Shown here: in pieces, positions 12,631 through 53,681 of the stretch
Position numbering within the stretch: position 1 is the first letter of the stretch
Layout of the letters: each line of letters begins with the position of its first letter
Virus record (IMG/VR): IMGVR_UViG_3300036791_001907
Span: 32,001 to 96,000 of that record
Strand: one strand, 5' to 3'
Source: a virus
Length of the DNA stretch: 64,000 nucleotides
Notes under the pieces: generated by a model
Told to the model about the DNA's origin: nothing
What the model saw: the letters and a program-made list of their open reading frames with translations, nothing else
Database searches by the model: none
Made by a program: the position numbers and the translations under genes

Positions 12631-13690
12631 TCTACCAGATCCCATCTTCGATCCCGCGAAGTGCCCGGTACCGCCCCTGGCGCCGGTCAGCACCGAGCCG
12701 TTCATCAACGACTGCACGGTGCCCGACGCGCCGGATCCGATCTTCGACTTCCCGCCGGTGATCGATATCCCGATCATCGGCCCCAGCGGTCTCCAGGGGA
12801 TGCTCGGCATTCAGGGTCCGTCCGGCCTGCAAGGTCCACAGGGACCACAGGGTCCGCAGGGACCACAGGGACCACAGGGCATCCAGGGGCCGCAGGGACT
12901 GCAAAGTCCCGAGGGACCCGCCGGTCCCATGGGACCGCAGGGTTTCCCCGGTCCCGAGGGACCAGAAGGGCCGGAGGGGCCAGAGGGTCCTGAAGGGCCA
13001 GAGGGTCCTGAAGGGCCAGAAGGGGCGGCGGGACCGGACGGATCGCCGGGACCGTCGGGACCACCAGGGGCGCAGGGGCAGCAGGGGCAGCAGGGCGCCA
13101 AGGGAGCGTCTGGGCCCCAGGGAACCCAGGGAAACAGTGGTAACCGAGGCCCGCAAGGGTTGCAGGGGAATACCGGCAACTCGGGCCCGCAGGGAACGCA
13201 GGGGAACCAGGGAAATACCGGGTCGACGGGGAACCAGGGCCCGCAGGGGAACAAGGGCCCGGACGGCTCCCAGGGGGACAAGTACGCCATCGTGCCCCTG
13301 CACGGCGGCAAGGATGACTACGTTGGCCTGTTCTGCGCCGAGATGCCCGAGTCGCGGTTCTTCGATCTCTACGACGTCAGCAACATCGATGAGGGAAGCC
13401 ACCTGGTCTGCCGGCTTGATCACCGGTTCATCGACGTCTGCGTGCCGGGCTCGATCGTGCCGGTCTCGGTGGCGCCCAACCGGCCCTGCCAGGTCGGCGT
13501 CGCGGTCAAGGACGGCGGCATCTGGATGGACATCGTCGCCAGTACGCACGGCGTGCCGACCCGCCTGACCGTGACCGTCTCGGGCATCCGCCGCGGCAAG
13601 AAGGGAGACCGGTTCCCGGCCTTCAAGGCCGATACGGCGCAGCGGAACCGGGCATTCTGGTCCCAGGCTTACGAGCCCGGAACGGACTAA
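12623..13690 (+). CDS. Collagen-like (Gly-X-Y) tail fibre/whisker protein
   Basis: Long GPQ/GPE/GNQ triplet run (about 12779-13279) between non-repetitive N- and C-terminal domains, at the end of the tail module. Confidence 0.85.
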
Positions 13691-29289: not shown

Positions 29290-29689
29290 ACCGACGGCCA
29301 GCGGTATATCTGGCGGTGATGGCAGCGATGGGTATGTTGCGGCGGGCCGAGCTACGTCGTGGTAGGTCCGGCAGCTGCGGTTGGGTTCGTCATGGCGAGC
29401 CGAGCATGGGTATGCTCCGTCATGGCAGCCGAGGCATGGTTTGTTGGACCATGGCGAGATGAGCTTAGCCGAGCTTCGGCGAGGCAGCCGGGGTGTGGTT
29501 CGGCGGGCTGTGCGGCGCCACGCCAGGGTTGGGCAGCTCAGATCAGGTGTGGACAGCTCTGGCCGGCAGCGCCAGGTCATGGCAGCCGAGGATAGACCTG
29601 GCCAGCCACGCGGAGCCGTCGTGAGCCGGGGCAGCATTGGCTGGTCACGTCATGACACGGCCAGTCGAGCACGGCCATGTTATGTCAGC
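29290..29689 (+). ncRNA. Guide-RNA array 1: pseudoknot repeat plus 7 pentamer-coded units (VIPR-like)
   Basis: 33-nt repeat at 29290-29322, then units such as GGCA|GCTGC|GGTTG|GGTTC|GTCAT|GGCGA|GCCGA|GCATG|GGTAT|GCTCC|GTCAT|GGCA. Confidence 0.85.
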
Positions 29690-29940: not shown

Positions 29941-30207
29941 ATGATCTGTCCGGAATGCGGGCATTCCAACCCGGTGATCGCCGCCGAGTGTCTCAAGTGC
30001 CGGTGCCGGTTCCTGGAACACGGTTGTTTTTCCGAGCAGTATCAGCACCCGCTCGTCGGCAAGCGAATCCAGGTCAATACCAGGACCGGCTGCATGGCCG
30101 AAGGGGTCGTGGAGCGGGTGGTGTCTTCACGTTTCGGCCTGCTCGCCTGCCTGGAAGGCGAAAACGGCAGGGCCTGGGCCGTGAACCAATGCACGCCGGT
30201 CACCTGA
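29941..30207 (+). CDS. Small Zn-ribbon protein between arrays
   Basis: 'CPECG...CLKC'; RBS AGGAG. Confidence 0.6.
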   Translation: MICPECGHSNPVIAAECLKCRCRFLEHGCFSEQYQHPLVGKRIQVNTRTGCMAEGVVERVVSSRFGLLACLEGENGRAWAVNQCTPVT

Positions 30208-30219
30208 CCGGCGTCATGG

Positions 30220-30629
30220 ACCGATGGCCGGCGGTATATCCGGCGGTGGTGGCTAGCCCTGGCGACATCAGCAATGGTCGCGCGAGCACTGCCGTGGCGC
30301 GTTCAGGCAGTACAGGCGGGGTGATGCGGGCAACGGCAGGGCCGGGTCCGTCCGGCGATGTCATGCCACGGTATGGCAGCTCAGGTGAGTTCAGATCGGC
30401 CATGCGCGGGCTGGCTGCGGTGACCAGAGGTGGGTCGAGCCGTGGCGAGGCAGCGTAGCCATGGAAGGGTCGGGTCGGTTGAGCTGCGGCGAGCCCAGCT
30501 GACGCAGGGCTGGCCGCGGCAGCAAAGAACCGATGGCCAGCGGTATATCTGGCGGTGACGGGAAGCATCGGCAGCGACGGAATGGCAGGGCAAGTTGCGT
30601 CTTGTTCCGGCCAGCCAAGTCATGGCTGC
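30220..30629 (+). ncRNA. Guide-RNA arrays 2-3: two pseudoknot repeats, 5 units; the last unit matches the downstream RAMP gene
   Basis: Repeats at 30220-30252 and 30529-30561; GGCA-delimited pentamer tracts. Confidence 0.85.
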
Positions 30630-30754
30630 GTCGTATTGCCGATCACTACGAGGACGATCCGCCTGCGCGGTGGATCGGAACACGTACTGAACACCCTACA
30701 GTTGCAGGGCCGCGGGACGCGCGGCCCGTCTCACTGGCGACAAAGGATGATCCA

Positions 30755-31666
30755 ATGCCAGCCAAGAAAGGTCCGGCCAAGGGGACAGTCCCGGTCAACA
30801 TCCCCCAGCCACAGATCCTCGACTTCGGGATCGGACTCATCGGCGTGACGCCGACGATCTCGAACGCATTCCCGCAGAAGATCCGTGAGAAGCTCGTGGC
30901 TGATCACATGCACATGCCTGAGGCCCTCATCCCCCACGAGGCCAAGGACCCGTGCGCCAACTTCAGCGCGTGCATCCACTACGTCAAGTCCAAGGACGGT
31001 GGGGTCAACTTCGCCATGCCCGGCTCCTCGTTCAAGGGGGCCATGGTCGCGGCGTGCCGGATGACCAACAAGAAGTTGGACATGGCCAGTGCCAAGCAGT
31101 TCTTCCAGGTGATCCCGTTCCGGGTCCAGATGTACGGCGACGAGCCGATCATGTGCGAGCACCGGGTCCGCAACGACAACGGCGGCGTCGACATCCGGCA
31201 CCGGGCCATGTACTGCCGTTGGTCGGTGATCCTGCCGATCCGCTACCACGCGGGGTCGATCTCCAAGGAGTCCCTGATCTACCTGGCGGAGCTGGCCGGC
31301 TTCGGCTGTGGCATCGGTGACTGGCGGATCGCGGCGCCCAAGAGCCCCAACGGGCAGATGGGCGCCTTCCGCGTGGCCCGCGAGGGCGAGATCGTCGGCC
31401 CGGCGTACTCCAAGTGGTGCGCCAAGAACCCGTTCGACTGGGACGAGTTCGAGCAGTACGGCATCGTCCCGCCCGCGCGGGTCGAGTACTACCGCAAGGC
31501 CGCCGAGATGGTTCGCGGCCTGCCGCCCGAGCAGCGGGGCACGCCCAAGAAGGGCAAGAGCCGGAAGGCTGTGCCCACCGCTGCGGCCGCCGCGGCGATC
31601 ATCAACGGCGTCCAGCCCGTCGACGGCCTTGAGCCGCCCGATGACGGCTACGTGCCGCAGCAGTAA
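30755..31666 (+). CDS. vipr: Stand-alone RAMP/Cas7-like RRM protein; putative RNA-guided effector (Vipr-like)
   Basis: 303 aa from ATG 30755 (RBS AAAGGA). First strand 'IGLIGVTP', RAMP helix motif 'MPGSSFKGAM', C-terminal G-rich loop 'AGFGCGIGDWR...GQMGAFRV'. No other cas genes in the window; flanked by the arrays. Confidence 0.8.
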   Translation: MPAKKGPAKGTVPVNIPQPQILDFGIGLIGVTPTISNAFPQKIREKLVADHMHMPEALIPHEAKDPCANFSACIHYVKSKDGGVNFAMPGSSFKGAMVAACRMTNKKLDMASAKQFFQVIPFRVQMYGDEPIMCEHRVRNDNGGVDIRHRAMYCRWSVILPIRYHAGSISKESLIYLAELAGFGCGIGDWRIAAPKSPNGQMGAFRVAREGEIVGPAYSKWCAKNPFDWDEFEQYGIVPPARVEYYRKAAEMVRGLPPEQRGTPKKGKSRKAVPTAAAAAAIINGVQPVDGLEPPDDGYVPQQ

Positions 31667-31741: not shown

Positions 31742-32275
31742 ATGCCATCGGGTGTCAAGAAGAAGTCATCAGCGCCGGCGCCGGCGCTCAAGTACGAGTT
31801 CCGGGCCTGCTTCCGGAGCCCGCTCGATCCCAACGTCGTCGCGGCGCGGCTCGAATGGCTCAGAACCAGACTGAGCCGGGACCCGGAGGGTCAGGACGTC
31901 CTGGAAGACGCCCGGCCCGTCGGCTCGCCGTTGCATGATCACTTCGACTGGAATGACTACGAGGCCGGCGAGAAGCATCGGCTCGGCCAGGCCACGGATC
32001 TGATCAACGCCATCCGGGTCACCGTTTACGTGGTGGCGAAGCCCAAGGGGCGGGTCAAGCAGCTGCTGCCGGCCTATGTCCGGCTGAAGAACCCCGCCGG
32101 TCGGCGCACCTTCGTCGCAGCGACCATCGCGACGGCAACGCCCCGGCGCGCAGAGACGCTGGCGGAGACCATCATTCGGTATGCACACATGGCGACTCGC
32201 GATCGCGCGCTCGGGCTCACCGAGCTGGATCCGCTGTTCGACGTGATTGATAAGTTGAAGAAGCGGTACGGCTGA
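31742..32275 (+). CDS. Accessory protein of the RAMP locus
   Basis: 177 aa; 'ARPVGSPLHDHFDWND.EAGEKHRL.QATDLINAI' is a phage hypothetical motif I recall next to such RAMP-like genes. Followed within 10 nt by a pseudoknot repeat. Confidence 0.7.
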   Translation: MPSGVKKKSSAPAPALKYEFRACFRSPLDPNVVAARLEWLRTRLSRDPEGQDVLEDARPVGSPLHDHFDWNDYEAGEKHRLGQATDLINAIRVTVYVVAKPKGRVKQLLPAYVRLKNPAGRRTFVAATIATATPRRAETLAETIIRYAHMATRDRALGLTELDPLFDVIDKLKKRYG

Positions 32276-32283
32276 TGCAGCAG

Positions 32284-33923
32284 ACCGACGGTCGGCGGTA
32301 TATCCGGTGGTGACGGGAAGGCGGCAGAGATCCGGCTTCGTTCGCTCCGGCGTGCGACGCTGGGGCCCGGCAGCCAAGGACCGGCGTGGCAAGCCGCGTT
32401 CTGGCTTGCAGCGTCTAGGTTCGGCCGCAGCGGAGGGCCAGGCCGGGGTAGTGTTCGGCTCCGCAGGTCGAGGCTTGTCCCGGTTCGGCAGCTCGGGTGC
32501 GTCGTGCTGCGAATAGGCATCGTGAGGCTGGCTTCGGCAGCGTCAGGCAGCGGCGGAGGGCCTTGTCCGGGTGTGGCATTCGGCGGCTTGGCGTGCCCAG
32601 GTGAGCCGAGGCCGTACAGGTTAGGCGGGATGCGCCCGGCACTGCAATGGCCTGCTCCGGCTGGCCGGGCAGTAAAGAACCGACGGCCAGCGGTATATCT
32701 GGCGGTGACGGCAGTTCAGGAGCGGATGGGACGGCCCAGGCAGGGCTTGTTACGGCCCGCCGGGACTCGTTTCGGCGCCGCCGTATTGGTCTGGCTTCAC
32801 ATGCCGTGGCGACGTGAGCCGCGGTCAGCACAGGAGCGGCAGCGATGGTTCGTCTAGTCTACACAAGGCAGGCCCAGGCAGCCGGAGGTATGCCCAGCAG
32901 GGCCATGGCCGTACAGGACAGCAGGGGTAGGTAAAGCACGGGCAAGCCGTGCCGGGTCCCGGCAGCGAAGCCGAGTTCCGGTGTGGTGCGCCGTGGTGGC
33001 GTCCGTCACGGCGGGCCATGTCGCGGCTAGTCAAGTCGCGGCAGCAAAAAACCTATGGCCACAGGTATATGTGGTGGTGATGGCAGGCAGGGCAAGCCCT
33101 GTCACGTCGCGGTGCGGCATGTCCCGGCAGCGTAGGCTTGGTCAGATACGCGAAGTCCTGGTACGCCGCGGCCGGCACAGGTTAGCTGCGGCCAGGCAGC
33201 ATAGGCTCGTCCCAGCAAAGGCAGGTCGCGACAGGGCTGGCCGCGGTTCGGCAGCATTGGCTGGGAAAGCCCAGCCCAGGTTCGCCGCGCCACGCAGGGC
33301 TTCGGCGGGGCGGGGCAGTCAAGGATCGGCATGGCGTGTCTAGCCACGGTCCGTCATGGCGAGTCGTGCTGCGGCAGCGGCGGAGAGCCGAGCCGTGGTG
33401 GCAACTGGTGGGCCAAGCTACGTTGTGGCGACGCCGGATAGGTATGGCATGCCCCGGACTGCCATGGCGAGTCATGGCGGGCCATGGCGAGCCGTGGCCG
33501 CGAAGGAGTGGCCGCCCGGCGTTCGTCCGGCGTTGGTTGGTCTAGGTAGGGACGCGTCAGCCGGGGCAGTCATGGTTTGGCGCGGCTTGCCTGGTCGTGC
33601 CACGGCAAGCGATGCCAGGGATGGGCAGCAAAAAACCCATGGTCACGGGTATATGTGACGGTGATGGTGCGGCAGCTCGGCCCTGCCATGATGGGGCATG
33701 TCGAGCCGCGGCCAGCAGCGCAATGGTAGCGCTGGTGTTCCCAAGCTTGGCCTGGGTAAGTCAAGCGCTGGCCAGCCGGGGCAGCGAAGGTGAGGCTAGA
33801 TCTATCGAGCCTAGCGCTGTCATGTGCTGGTGAGCCGGGGTGAGCCTCGGTACGGTATCGCCGCTCTGGCGGCGTTAGTCGTGACATCGAAAGCTGTGGT
33901 ATGCCGAGTCGAGGTCAGACAGC
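32284..33923 (+). ncRNA. Guide-RNA arrays 4-7: four pseudoknot repeats, about 24 units
   Basis: Repeats at 32284, 32679, 33051 and 33635; continuous 5-nt periodicity reset by 4-nt GGCA/GGCC/CGCC delimiters. Confidence 0.9.
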
Positions 33924-33936
33924 AGAGGAGGTGTGA

Positions 33937-34152
33937 ATGATCGGACCCAAGTGCGAGTGCCGAAAGCCGACCTTTCCGTCTGAAGACGAACAGTCCTGGC
34001 TGTGCATGAACCCGGAGTGTGCGGGCTTCCAGCAGGTCTACTGCGAGTTGACGCCGGCAGACCTGGCGCTCATCGCCAAGCTGAAGGCGCTGGCCAATGG
34101 CCACTGGCAGCGTGTTGCAAAAACCCGAAAACTCCGCGGTACCAGGAAGTGA
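33937..34152 (+). CDS. Small Zn-finger protein inserted in the array
   Basis: RBS GAGGAGG; 'CEC...CMNPEC'; lacks pentamer periodicity. Confidence 0.6.
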   Translation: MIGPKCECRKPTFPSEDEQSWLCMNPECAGFQQVYCELTPADLALIAKLKALANGHWQRVAKTRKLRGTRK

Positions 34153-34157
34153 TGAAC

Positions 34158-35835
34158 GGTTCGGCAGCCGCGGTGAGGTGCGACCGGGTTCGTCCAGCGA
34201 TGGCGGACCTTGGTGTGGCATCACAGCAGTAAACCTATGGCCACAGGTATAAGTGGCGGTGATGGAATGGCAGCATCGGACGGGCTCGGACGGGCCATGA
34301 CGGGCCGGGTTAGCTGTGCCGCGTCAAGGCAGTACTGGCTAGGTTTTTCAGGGCATGCTCTGGTGCGCCTGGTCACGGCCGTCTAGGTGAGGAGTCGCGT
34401 GCAGCGGCTTGCCACGGCCAGTTCTGTCGAGGCAAGCCGAGGCCGTCAAGGTGCGGCCAGGCAAGTAATGCAGGGATCGGGCTGGCTATGGTCCGGCCGC
34501 AATGGCAAGGTTAGTTGCGGCTGGTACCGGCGGGGCGAGCCCTGCTGTGGTATGGCCGTAACGGTAGTCCGCGGAGCGCCATGGACGGCCCCGCTCAGGC
34601 TGGCCAAGGTCGGCCGAGGCAGTCTTGCAAGGGATCGTCCAGCCTGGTTGTGCCATGGCCAGGCAGGGGAGCAGAGGTGTGTTCTGGCACCCTGTGATCT
34701 GGCCGGCCAAGTCACGGCAAGGCCGGGCAGCAGTAAACCCATGGTCGCGGGTATATGCGACGGTGATGGAAGGGCAGCCGTGGACAGCAGGGTTATGATG
34801 CGCTGCGCAAGGGCTGGTCCTGGCAGGCCAAGGATCGGCAGGAGAGCACAGGTCCGGTCTGCATAGTAGTGGCGAGACCTACCATGTCGAGCCGGGTTTC
34901 GGCAGCAATGCGAAGGTGAGCCTTGCCGGGGCGGCCGTAGCTGTGGCAGTGTAGTCGAGTCGTGGCAAGCCTAGTCCGGCATAGTTGGGCTCTGGTCCGG
35001 TCCGGCAGCAGAAGTGTGTCTTGGTCCGCCGCGTCGCGACGCGGTGGGATCCGGCAGTAATGGTGCGGCTAGTCATGGCGCCGCGAGCCGCGCTGTGTCA
35101 TGTCATGATCTGGCTAGGCCGGACAGCAAAAAACCGATGGCCAGCGGTATATCTGGTGGTGACGGGAAGCATCGGCAGCGACGGCAAGCCGTGGTGTGGT
35201 ATGCCCGGCTCCGCCAAGCTACGGCAGCAGTGGGCAGGCTGGGCAGGTTTTGCTCCGTCGTGTCGAGTGTTGGTAAGGCAGCCATGGTGTGGCCCGGCGC
35301 GTCATGTCGCGTCGTCCTTTGCGCCGGCATGGCGTGGCCGCTGTGGCAAGACACCCTTAGTCATGATGGGGCCGGGCGGGCACCTGTTTGCTGCGCCGAG
35401 TCGTGGCAGTGACGCAGTGGTGTGTTGTGCCCCGGCCTGCCCCGGCGAGTCCTGTCATCGTGGGCAGCGCTGAGGCAGCAAAAAACCCATGGCCACGGGT
35501 ATATGTGGCGGTGATGGACAGCCCCGCGCTGGCCGGCTTTGGTCAGCCATGCAGAGCTGCGGCAGCAGAGGTGAGGCGTGACCAGCACAGCCGGGGTACG
35601 GTTCGCTGTGCCCTGGTTAGGCAGGTGGGTCATGGTTCGCGATGGCGCGTTGAGCCTTGCCATGGTGAGGCAGCAATGGATCGGCGGGCTGTGGCACGGC
35701 AAGCCTGGGTCGGATCCGCTGCGGCAGCGGAGGTGCGGAACGCCATGGACCGGCAGGGTGGGCCAGGGTGGGCCGAGCCACGGCAGCACGGGTGTGCCGT
35801 GTCCGGCCTAGTCAAGGACGGATGAGCCGCGCACT
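34158..35835 (+). ncRNA. Guide-RNA arrays 8-11: four pseudoknot repeats, about 26 units
   Basis: Repeats at 34233, 34737, 35133 and 35485; same pentamer grammar; ends at a strong hairpin. Confidence 0.9.
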
Positions 35836-35840
35836 GTGGA

Positions 35841-35870
35841 AGGGGGCGTGGTCTTCGGGCCACGCCCCCT
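35841..35870. terminator. GC-rich hairpin with cUUCGg tetraloop closing the array
   Basis: AGGGGGCGTGGTC-TTCG-GGCCACGCCCCCT, between the + strand array and a convergent - strand gene; U-tract weak. Confidence 0.7.
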
Positions 35871-53318: not shown

Positions 53319-53535
53319 TCCGATGGCCACCGGAATATGTGGCGGTGACGGCAGCGCAGGAGAGGACAGCCGTGGCAAGCCGAGCCCGCTCGCGGCAGGG
53401 CAGGCCAAGGCGGGCCTTGGCAGCAAAGGCGGGGCGTGGACGGACGCGTTATGCTAGGATGAGCCTCGCGCAGGCAGGACCGCCGAGGATGGTTGAGGCT
53501 TGATCTATCAGGGCACGCCCAGCCAAGTCAGGGCA
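53319..53535 (+). ncRNA. Orphan guide-RNA array 12: pseudoknot repeat plus 3 units
   Basis: TCCGATGGCCACCGGAATATGTGGCGGTGACGG, then GGCA|GCGCA|GGAGA|GGACA|GCCGT|GGCAA|GCCGA... Confidence 0.85.
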
Positions 53536-53681
53536 GGACGCCAGTCGTACTGGTCGGGACCCTACCGCCGGACCCGGCGGTGGGCCTGACACCCGGGGAT
53601 CCTGGGACACCTCTTGCCCCCAGGATCCCAGGTGGGCCGGTCTCTGGAACGAGACGTCGTTCCGGGGGCCGGTCCGTTTTC

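Follow-up and report, generated by a model that had tools for sequence, protein, structure and literature searches.

A guide unit of a phage VIPR locus matches the phage's own vipr gene except for a serine codon-family swap

The window analysed here, a stretch of 64,000 nucleotides (nt) of viral DNA, corresponds to bases 32001-96000 of IMG/VR record IMGVR_UViG_3300036791_001907 (161,481 bp, 65% GC). Judged by its sequence, it contains a Viral Interference Programmable Repeat (VIPR) system, with a Vipr RAMP gene, a vap gene, staggered arrays of vrRNA guides built from GNY-NN pentamers, and a pseudoknot. A cassette holding one full guide lies immediately upstream of the vipr gene, and this guide is 0.90 identical to the very gene that it adjoins, being off by a single swap between the two codon families of serine. 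Neither the code nor the system is new, since both have been published as VIPR, including guides that target vipr and the avoidance of self; what is new is to find, in a VIPR-positive phage, such a guide next to its own near-target.

VIPR systems are encoded by phages and consist of a minimal RAMP protein (Vipr) and the accessory gene vap (10.64898/2026.04.26.720920; 10.64898/2026.04.26.720927). Their vrRNAs, 9-16 pentamer units long in the published cases, are made of GGY/NN pentamers or "a related consensus" plus a pseudoknot element, and some types form "staggered arrays" in which successive vrRNAs overlap by 1 nt (10.64898/2026.04.26.720920; 10.64898/2026.04.26.720927). Under the "1-nt skip rule" double-stranded DNA is read, each NN dinucleotide pairs and one target base, mostly a codon wobble position, is skipped (10.64898/2026.04.26.720920); according to the published rule, the Vipr protomers hide the GNY triplet and expose the NN pair. 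The outcome is transcriptional silencing, which can be exerted from either strand and needs no protospacer-adjacent motif (VIPR preprints, 2026). The same preprints call targets at a cut-off of 0.80 and report no self match of at least 0.80. Finally, vrRNAs directed against early vipr codons have been described on VIPR-null phages, while VIPR-positive phages carry vrRNA-targeting guides against the VIPR loci of rivals, with self scores lower than rival scores (10.64898/2026.10.15.759431).

The features of the locus around the guide are the following.

30529-30561, + strand: H-type pseudoknot of 33 nt at the head of the single-guide cassette, fully paired like its 11 other copies in the window.
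30555-30573, + strand: leader, made of the last motif pentamer, two pentamers and a 4-nt GGCA phase reset (segmentation).
30574-30623, + strand: vrRNA guide unit of ten GNY-NN pentamers (segmentation).
30624-30627, + strand: terminal 4-nt GGCT in place of the GGCA of other units; it closes the last unit of the tract (segmentation).
30656-30676 and 30707-30727 (span 30656-30727), + strand: two GC-rich hairpins in the interval between the guide and the ribosome-binding site (RBS) of vipr (fold).
30755-31666, + strand: vipr gene, 303 amino acids (aa), Cas7-like RAMP (profile, fold and homologue alignment).
30854-30882, + strand: footprint of the guide on vipr, codons 34-43 at 30854-30883, peptide TISNAFPQKI (NN comparison).
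30860-30862, + strand: Ser36 codon TCG, where the guide reads AG, the sole NN mismatch.
31742-32275, + strand: vap-like accessory gene, 177 aa (position and homologous loci).

The guide has ten in-phase pentamers, all of them starting with G and eight with a pyrimidine at position 3. It is flanked by GGCA (30570-30573) upstream and GGCT (30624-30627) downstream, so that 30574-30623 is a complete unit with natural boundaries rather than a segment chosen at will, and it is the only full guide of the cassette led by the pseudoknot at 30529. This pseudoknot is intact and identical to the consensus of its copies, and the leader that follows it is identical to that of the cassette at 35133 (flank 35133-35177).

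When the guide is read by the skip rule, its ten NN dinucleotides correspond to codon positions 1-2 of vipr codons 34-43, in frame, with nine of the ten dinucleotides (18/20 letters) identical and the skipped base at codon position 3, the wobble position. The one exception is the third dinucleotide (NN3), which sits in the pentamer GGCAG and reads AG, where the gene has the TC of a serine codon TCG. No N-terminal motif of this Vipr clade is better conserved than the peptide of the footprint, and 231 nt separate the end of the guide unit from the start of its target. An earlier reading of the letters alone (hereafter the first-pass annotation) had already decoded this unit, reported the in-frame match at nine of ten dinucleotides about 230 nt downstream, noted that AG and TC can both encode serine, and placed a pseudoknot of the cassette's own directly upstream. 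Our segmentation and codon comparison bear it out on these points, with the precision that a two-pentamer leader lies between pseudoknot and guide. It had also proposed that the match validates the code internally: the decoding rule is indeed correct, but it is the skip rule already published for VIPR, and the match adds to it only an in-silico confirmation in a distant staggered-array clade.

The register of the match is specific. For this guide we varied the pentamer positions that are read, the length of the skip and the orientation in 21 ways: 18/20 results from positions 4-5 with a skip of 1 nt and from no other setting, the remaining 20 giving 13-16 matches. Guide and vipr are on the same strand, so that only the template DNA strand can pair with the guide; pairing with the vipr mRNA, which we considered, is rejected on the same ground, the two RNAs having the same sense.

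Could the match simply be a coincidence, one of many guides meeting some coding sequence by chance and without meaning? The search covered both strands of 161 kb with about 51-65 guides, and other guides, short and GC-rich ones, do reach 0.80-0.83 by chance, these being the next-best self-matches; when the whole set of 51 guides is shuffled, 10 of 1500 rounds (0.7%) yield a match of at least 0.90 in the window. The guide at 30574-30623 is, however, the best self-match of the ~51 guides across the 161-kb genome, as the comparison of all units with the phage genome suggested by the first-pass annotation makes clear, and shuffling it does not produce equally good matches: in 2000 shuffles compared with the window, best matches were of 13-15 letters, 17 was attained three times and 18 never. 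The expected number of sites with at least 18/20 letters is ~3e-4 per shuffled guide in the 161-kb genome, which makes the figure near 1e-5 given in the first-pass annotation roughly tenfold too optimistic. For a match of this quality to its own vipr by a 10-NN guide, we obtain ~1e-4 over all guides (by scaling the ~3e-4 rate arithmetically to the vipr coding sequence, with no separate simulation), a figure lowered further by the wobble register, and shuffles and scaling together put the joint probability at about 1e-5 to 1e-4. A family-wise shuffle against the vipr-vap operon is looser (at least 0.90 in 14/4000 rounds) and is dominated by guides of 7-9 NN, which reach 0.90 far more easily than a guide of ten. 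Against coincidence speak also the location of the match in the system's own effector gene, in its most conserved motif and in the wobble register, the synonymous-compatible nature of the only mismatch, and the background level of all alternative registers and skip rules. The match is very probably not due to chance, and its being a meaningless coincidence is the least probable of the explanations that we have weighed.

The matched gene, called a RAMP gene in the first-pass annotation, is a vipr gene. Its start is the ATG at 30755, preceded by an RBS at 30742-47, with an N-terminus that aligns with those of the homologues. The family profile (the window protein and nine homologues) matches PDB entry 36pp, "SUSP1 Vipr protein", with E=1.6e-5 over the G-loop; the loop C-G-I-G-D-W-R (residues 185-191) corresponds to C173, T175, D177, W178 and R179 of SUSP1, and the window protein retains those residues of the loop by which SUSP1 Vipr reads G1, G2 and Y3. 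The top 40 matches of the predicted fold are almost all Csm3, Cas7 or Cas7-11 (probability up to 1.0, E 2e-3 or weaker; model pLDDT 67).

The nature of the mismatch becomes clearer when the gene is compared with its relatives. We used the DNA of nine homologous vipr genes (L001, L002, L004, L012, L013, L014, L015, L016 and L017), and could thereby look for AGY versus TCN codons at this serine, as the first-pass annotation had advised. The aligned conserved serine is AGC in five of them (L001, L004, L012, L014, L015) and TCG in the other four (L002, L013, L016, L017), and parsimony on a maximum-likelihood tree gives AGC for the ingroup ancestor, TCG of the window gene being derived. The codon family of Ser36 has changed three times in the ten genes, more than in any other of 13 conserved Ser/Leu/Arg columns, which is suggestive, in a small sample.

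On the side of the guide, 150 different single-NN mismatches are possible, and AG at NN3 is the only one that preserves the peptide, because TISNAFPQKI contains neither Leu nor Arg. We also considered that AG at this position might be an artefact of composition or of the boundary motif and rejected it: AG occurs less often than any other guide dinucleotide in the arrays (3.5%), and pentamers that read GGCAG in phase are avoided (7/574). The rarity of AG, the avoidance of GGCAG and the preservation of the peptide together suggest that AG was specified by a target encoding this peptide with an AGY serine. The guide scores 17/20 on L012, 16/20 on L001 and L004, and 13-15 on the genes that bear TCG or are more divergent. 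Since it also matches the codons of T34 and I43, which are unique to the window gene among the homologues, its target would be a vipr gene of the same lineage, either in a close unsampled relative or in a recent ancestor.

Another hypothesis is that of a relic, in which the guide once matched its own or an ancestral vipr perfectly (as a regulator or as an acquired anti-vipr guide), and the gene then drifted or escaped, leaving a functionless cassette. The derivation of TCG from AGC on the tree agrees with this, as do the position of the guide as last unit of its tract, its GGCT instead of GGCA end, the purine found as third base in each of its two initial pentamers and the reduction of the corresponding cassette of L001 to a stub of four pentamers. 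On the other hand, all ten pentamers are in the G register, eight have Y at position 3, and the pseudoknot has kept its consensus sequence. Moreover, the branch is long and a guide without function should have decayed along it, yet 18/20 letters agree to this day. We find the relic improbable, if not quite as improbable as chance.

We think that the guide is better explained as a weapon against close kin, the phage's own copy of vipr having been recoded to resist it, and we would put the probability of this reading at roughly one half. The guide, if expressed and loaded, would act as a vipr-targeting vrRNA read by the published skip rule, and would specify the template strand of codons 34-43 of an own-lineage vipr allele with an AGY codon at Ser36. 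Such an allele presumably exists in sister phages, and the guide would silence the vipr-vap operon of co-infecting close relatives by a transcriptional roadblock. The TCG codon of the phage's own gene would leave one whole protomer step unpaired; a single NN mismatch may be enough to spare the self copy, and the TCG allele 231 nt downstream would accordingly lower self-silencing. So tight a linkage of guide and allele would keep the weapon and the resistant allele together. We favour this hypothesis because the mismatch appears to lie on the target side and to be constrained by the protein, taken together with the kin-attack findings published for vipr-targeting guides (10.64898/2026.10.15.759431). 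The first-pass annotation had left the choice between tuned negative autoregulation and an attack on a rival with recoding of self. The attack gains from the comparison (AGC in 5/9 homologues, a derived TCG, a unique peptide-preserving mismatch and relatives whose guides do not match their own vipr), but no rival allele with a full match has come to light in the collections searched, and autoregulation keeps a share of the probability.

Several observations weigh against the idea of an anti-kin guide and should be stated clearly. No exact match to the full 10-NN pattern in a vipr context was found in IMG/VR, JGI metagenome contigs or GTDB genomes, as searched without the records closest to the window's genome: the pattern has no viral match, four in metagenomes and one in a genome, all in low-GC DNA, in frames with stops, and not in vipr, and the 16 matches of an 8-NN core pattern in IMG/VR are all chance sites in unrelated low-GC DNA. 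No rival vipr is matched better than the phage's own, the best sampled homologue (L012, 17/20) staying below the self score of 18/20. This self score of 0.90 exceeds the 0.80 cut-off of the VIPR authors, so that self-silencing may well occur. The purine at position 3 of the first two guide pentamers would be excluded by the Y-pocket of SUSP1. The argument from lineage is weakened by the fact that the first pentamer (NN1, AC) is common to the paralogous cassette at 35178, and the match at T34 may thus be inherited. The branch of the window gene is long (0.65 substitutions per site), and a neutral switch of serine family is possible on it; the other two conserved serine columns scored have changed once each.

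The high self score brings us to tuned negative autoregulation, according to which Vipr loaded with this guide would bind codons 34-43 of its own gene despite one unpaired NN and throttle vipr-vap as Vipr accumulates. In favour of such a circuit are a dedicated single-guide cassette immediately upstream and on the same strand as the matched gene, an identity above the level at which the VIPR papers call targets, and a system that represses from either strand without PAM. In three of the related loci (L001, L002 and L013), too, a single cassette led by a pseudoknot has been kept between vipr and the gene upstream of it, L004 and L014 having none there. Nevertheless, the circuit itself is not conserved: the upstream single guides of L002 and L013 remain at background (0.58-0.69) on their own and on other vipr loci, the upstream cassette of L001 is the stub mentioned above, none of the relatives' guides reaches 0.80 on its own vipr, and full scans of three loci gave no self-match of at least 0.85. 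There is therefore no support for a conserved autoregulatory circuit. Moreover, any of the 150 variants would serve a guide tuned by mismatch; that the observed mismatch is the sole peptide-preserving one out of 150 looks like a change on the side of the gene, and the absence of any self match of at least 0.80 in the published surveys suggests that self-targeting is normally selected against. We consider autoregulation unlikely as the explanation of the match, although it stands ahead of the relic. A self score of 0.90, in a system for which the 2026 VIPR preprints give no measurement of mismatch tolerance, makes it quite possible that the guide binds its own gene to some extent and thereby regulates it; an anti-kin and an autoregulatory role are not mutually exclusive.

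The guides of the relatives were also compared with vipr genes other than their own. Among 159 guides set against the ten vipr genes there is one notable match, from a 12-NN guide of L002 (L002:9922-9981) to the vipr of its close kin L013 (L013:3246-3280, vipr nt 84-118), with 20/24 letters, against 14/24 at the homologous site of L002 itself. A score of 20 was reached in 1/5000 shuffles. The footprint lies next to the ISNAF motif, in the same region of early codons as that of the window guide, and its skipped bases do not fall on wobble positions. L002 may thus have another anti-vipr guide directed at kin, a proposal that is only suggestive with 159 guides tested. The targets of the other window guides were not found in the nine related loci (matches at the shuffled level, four versus a mean of 1.3) or, for two other long guides searched as exact patterns, in IMG/VR.

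The vipr-targeting vrRNAs of the SUSP1 family (10.64898/2026.10.15.759431) resemble the guide described here in being directed at early vipr codons, in their wobble alignment and in the role in kin attack proposed for them; there too a rival is supposed to score higher than self, as we propose for the window guide, whose rival allele is a predicted one. They differ in that they are found on VIPR-null phages, with no self copy, whereas the carrier of the present guide is VIPR-positive and has the guide 231 nt from its near-target. Unlike in the SUSP1-family guides, self and non-self would here be told apart by a single synonymous swap of serine codon family. For the published VIPR systems no self match of 0.80 or more is reported, and the window has one at 0.90.

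Another comparison is with the CRISPR RNA-like autoregulators of CRISPR-Cas systems (those of the CreR type, or the long tracrRNA of Cas9), in which the gene of a guide-like RNA lies beside the effector genes, the RNA is partly complementary to the operon of its own system, and the effector serves as the repressor. These regulators target promoters, and their partial pairing avoids cleavage. The window site is, by contrast, inside the coding sequence, and the arrangement is not conserved in the relatives; furthermore, VIPR type II does not cut.

Since VIPR reads codon positions 1-2 only, switches between the codon families of Ser, Leu or Arg are the sole synonymous way to escape it. This allows one to extend the anti-kin hypothesis: the guide and the recoded codon might constitute a linked weapon-immunity pair for kin discrimination, silencing vipr in co-infecting sister phages with AGY at Ser36, whose VIPR system would thus be disarmed, and sparing the TCG copy next to it, and the three switches at Ser36 would be the trace of an arms race. 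We advance this extension tentatively, as less probable than the anti-kin hypothesis on which it builds. By analogy, bacteriocin/immunity and toxin/antitoxin pairs would be comparable in that a weapon against kin is inherited with a closely linked resistance; the putative "immunity" would differ from that of bacteriocins in being a synonymous recoding of the target gene and not a separate gene.

The VIPR preprints hold that a wobble-skipping code cannot be escaped by synonymous mutation and report no self-targeting guides, and the present locus bears on both statements. The one loophole in such a code is six-fold degenerate serine, and nature appears to have exploited it here, at a conserved position of the effector gene. 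In this phage, moreover, one step of the guide may be all that distinguishes self from target. The pair of TCG and AGC alleles makes it possible to test the tolerance of VIPR to an NN mismatch, the regulation of a VIPR system by its own guides, and the linked inheritance of guide and target. In addition, the skip rule is found to hold, in silico, for a distant clade with GNY-NN repeats, 5' pseudoknots and a staggered array of more than 50 units.

The remainder of the VIPR locus consists mostly of guide arrays, of which the tracts are as follows.

32284-35850, + strand: main staggered vrRNA array, with nine pseudoknot-led cassettes and ~45 units (segmentation).
29290-29687, 30220-30521 and 53319-53541, + strand: further vrRNA tracts (segmentation).

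In all, ~5 kb of non-coding window sequence has G at every fifth base on the + strand (29290-29687, 30220-30627, 32284-35850 and 53319-53541), and no such tract exists elsewhere in the 161-kb genome. A segmentation that tracks the register divides these tracts into units of 5n-1 nt, each ending in GGCA, with the next G opening the following unit (the processing itself is only predicted). Most units have 9-15 pentamers of consensus GNY-NN: position 1 is G in 94% and position 3 a pyrimidine in 78%, position 2 is G (42%), C (36%) or T (17%), and positions 4-5 are near-uniform in composition. The whole amounts to 12 cassettes and roughly 50-65 units. The scarcity of GGCAG pentamers is consistent with GGCAG being a unit-boundary or processing signal that guides avoid.

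Each run of units is preceded on its 5' side by the 33-nt pseudoknot, whose copies start at 29290, 30220, 30529, 32284, 32679, 33051, 33635, 34233, 34737, 35133, 35485 and 53319, that is, one for ~5 units on average; none follows the last unit of any tract. Its two interleaved helices are paired in 108/108 pair cells over the 12 copies, with compensatory changes in five of the nine pairs, slid controls being paired at 28-48%. Published VIPR systems share with the window the phage host, the Cas7-like protein and the small downstream accessory gene, and likewise the two hypervariable bases per pentamer, the 1-base overlap of units and a target of form NNx with x on the wobble position. The window departs from their strict GGY by its GNY, a "related consensus" of the kind that the preprint admits. 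A pseudoknot element is present in both, but in SUSP1 it caps the 3' end of each of only four vrRNAs, whereas here it precedes runs of ~5 units; and the window Vipr, with 303 aa, is longer than theirs by virtue of a C-terminal extension.

This extension comprises ~90 aa (residues ~212-303, 31387-31666), is predicted with low confidence and has a conserved end of the G-Y-x-P-Q-E type. It is absent from most family members, which are of ~200-250 aa: an exhaustive profile search gave 2806 representative clusters, mostly in that size range, the 300-aa form being a small subclade. A gene of 168-202 aa comes after vipr in all homologous loci fetched, mostly directly; the vap-like protein of the window matches only phrog_15946 (unknown function) and no Pfam family. 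Comparison of the locus with phage records by blastn gave no match, and searches of IMG/VR for related loci, both with the Vipr protein and with the alignment, gave no relatives; a second contig (SRR11833939) encodes an identical Vipr protein. Distant homologues of Vipr (~30% identity, E ~1e-13), annotated as hypothetical only, are present in 32 actinophage records, from phages of Mycobacterium and Gordonia (for example NC_051648.1:37427-37960), and VIPR may thus be present, unrecognised, in those phages.

The two hairpins in the interval between the guide and the RBS of vipr (30656-30727) may be a terminator or an insulator. They have no T tract, a scan around the cassette for promoter and terminator consensus was uninformative and showed no canonical terminator, and the minimum-free-energy fold of 30522-30760 is not significantly stable (z = -1.7).

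Some minor observations can be added. The cassette at 53319-53541, with three to four units, stands by itself at a distance of 17 kb from the rest of the VIPR locus, and none of its guides attains a score of 0.8 in the genome. Two small open reading frames (ORFs) between vrRNA cassettes, at 29941-30207 (88 aa) and 33937-34152 (71 aa), each have their own RBS and encode paired Cys-x-x-Cys motifs of zinc-ribbon-like type; the former has only a sub-threshold Pfam match, to Zn_Ribbon_1, and the latter breaks the main array where the 5-nt periodicity lapses (33858-34166). Scans of the window for Rfam families, tRNA genes and tandem repeats gave nothing relevant to the locus; tandem repeats of 9 nt and 27 nt at 12836-13214 are of the collagen-like Gly-X-Y type and probably belong to a tail-fibre gene.

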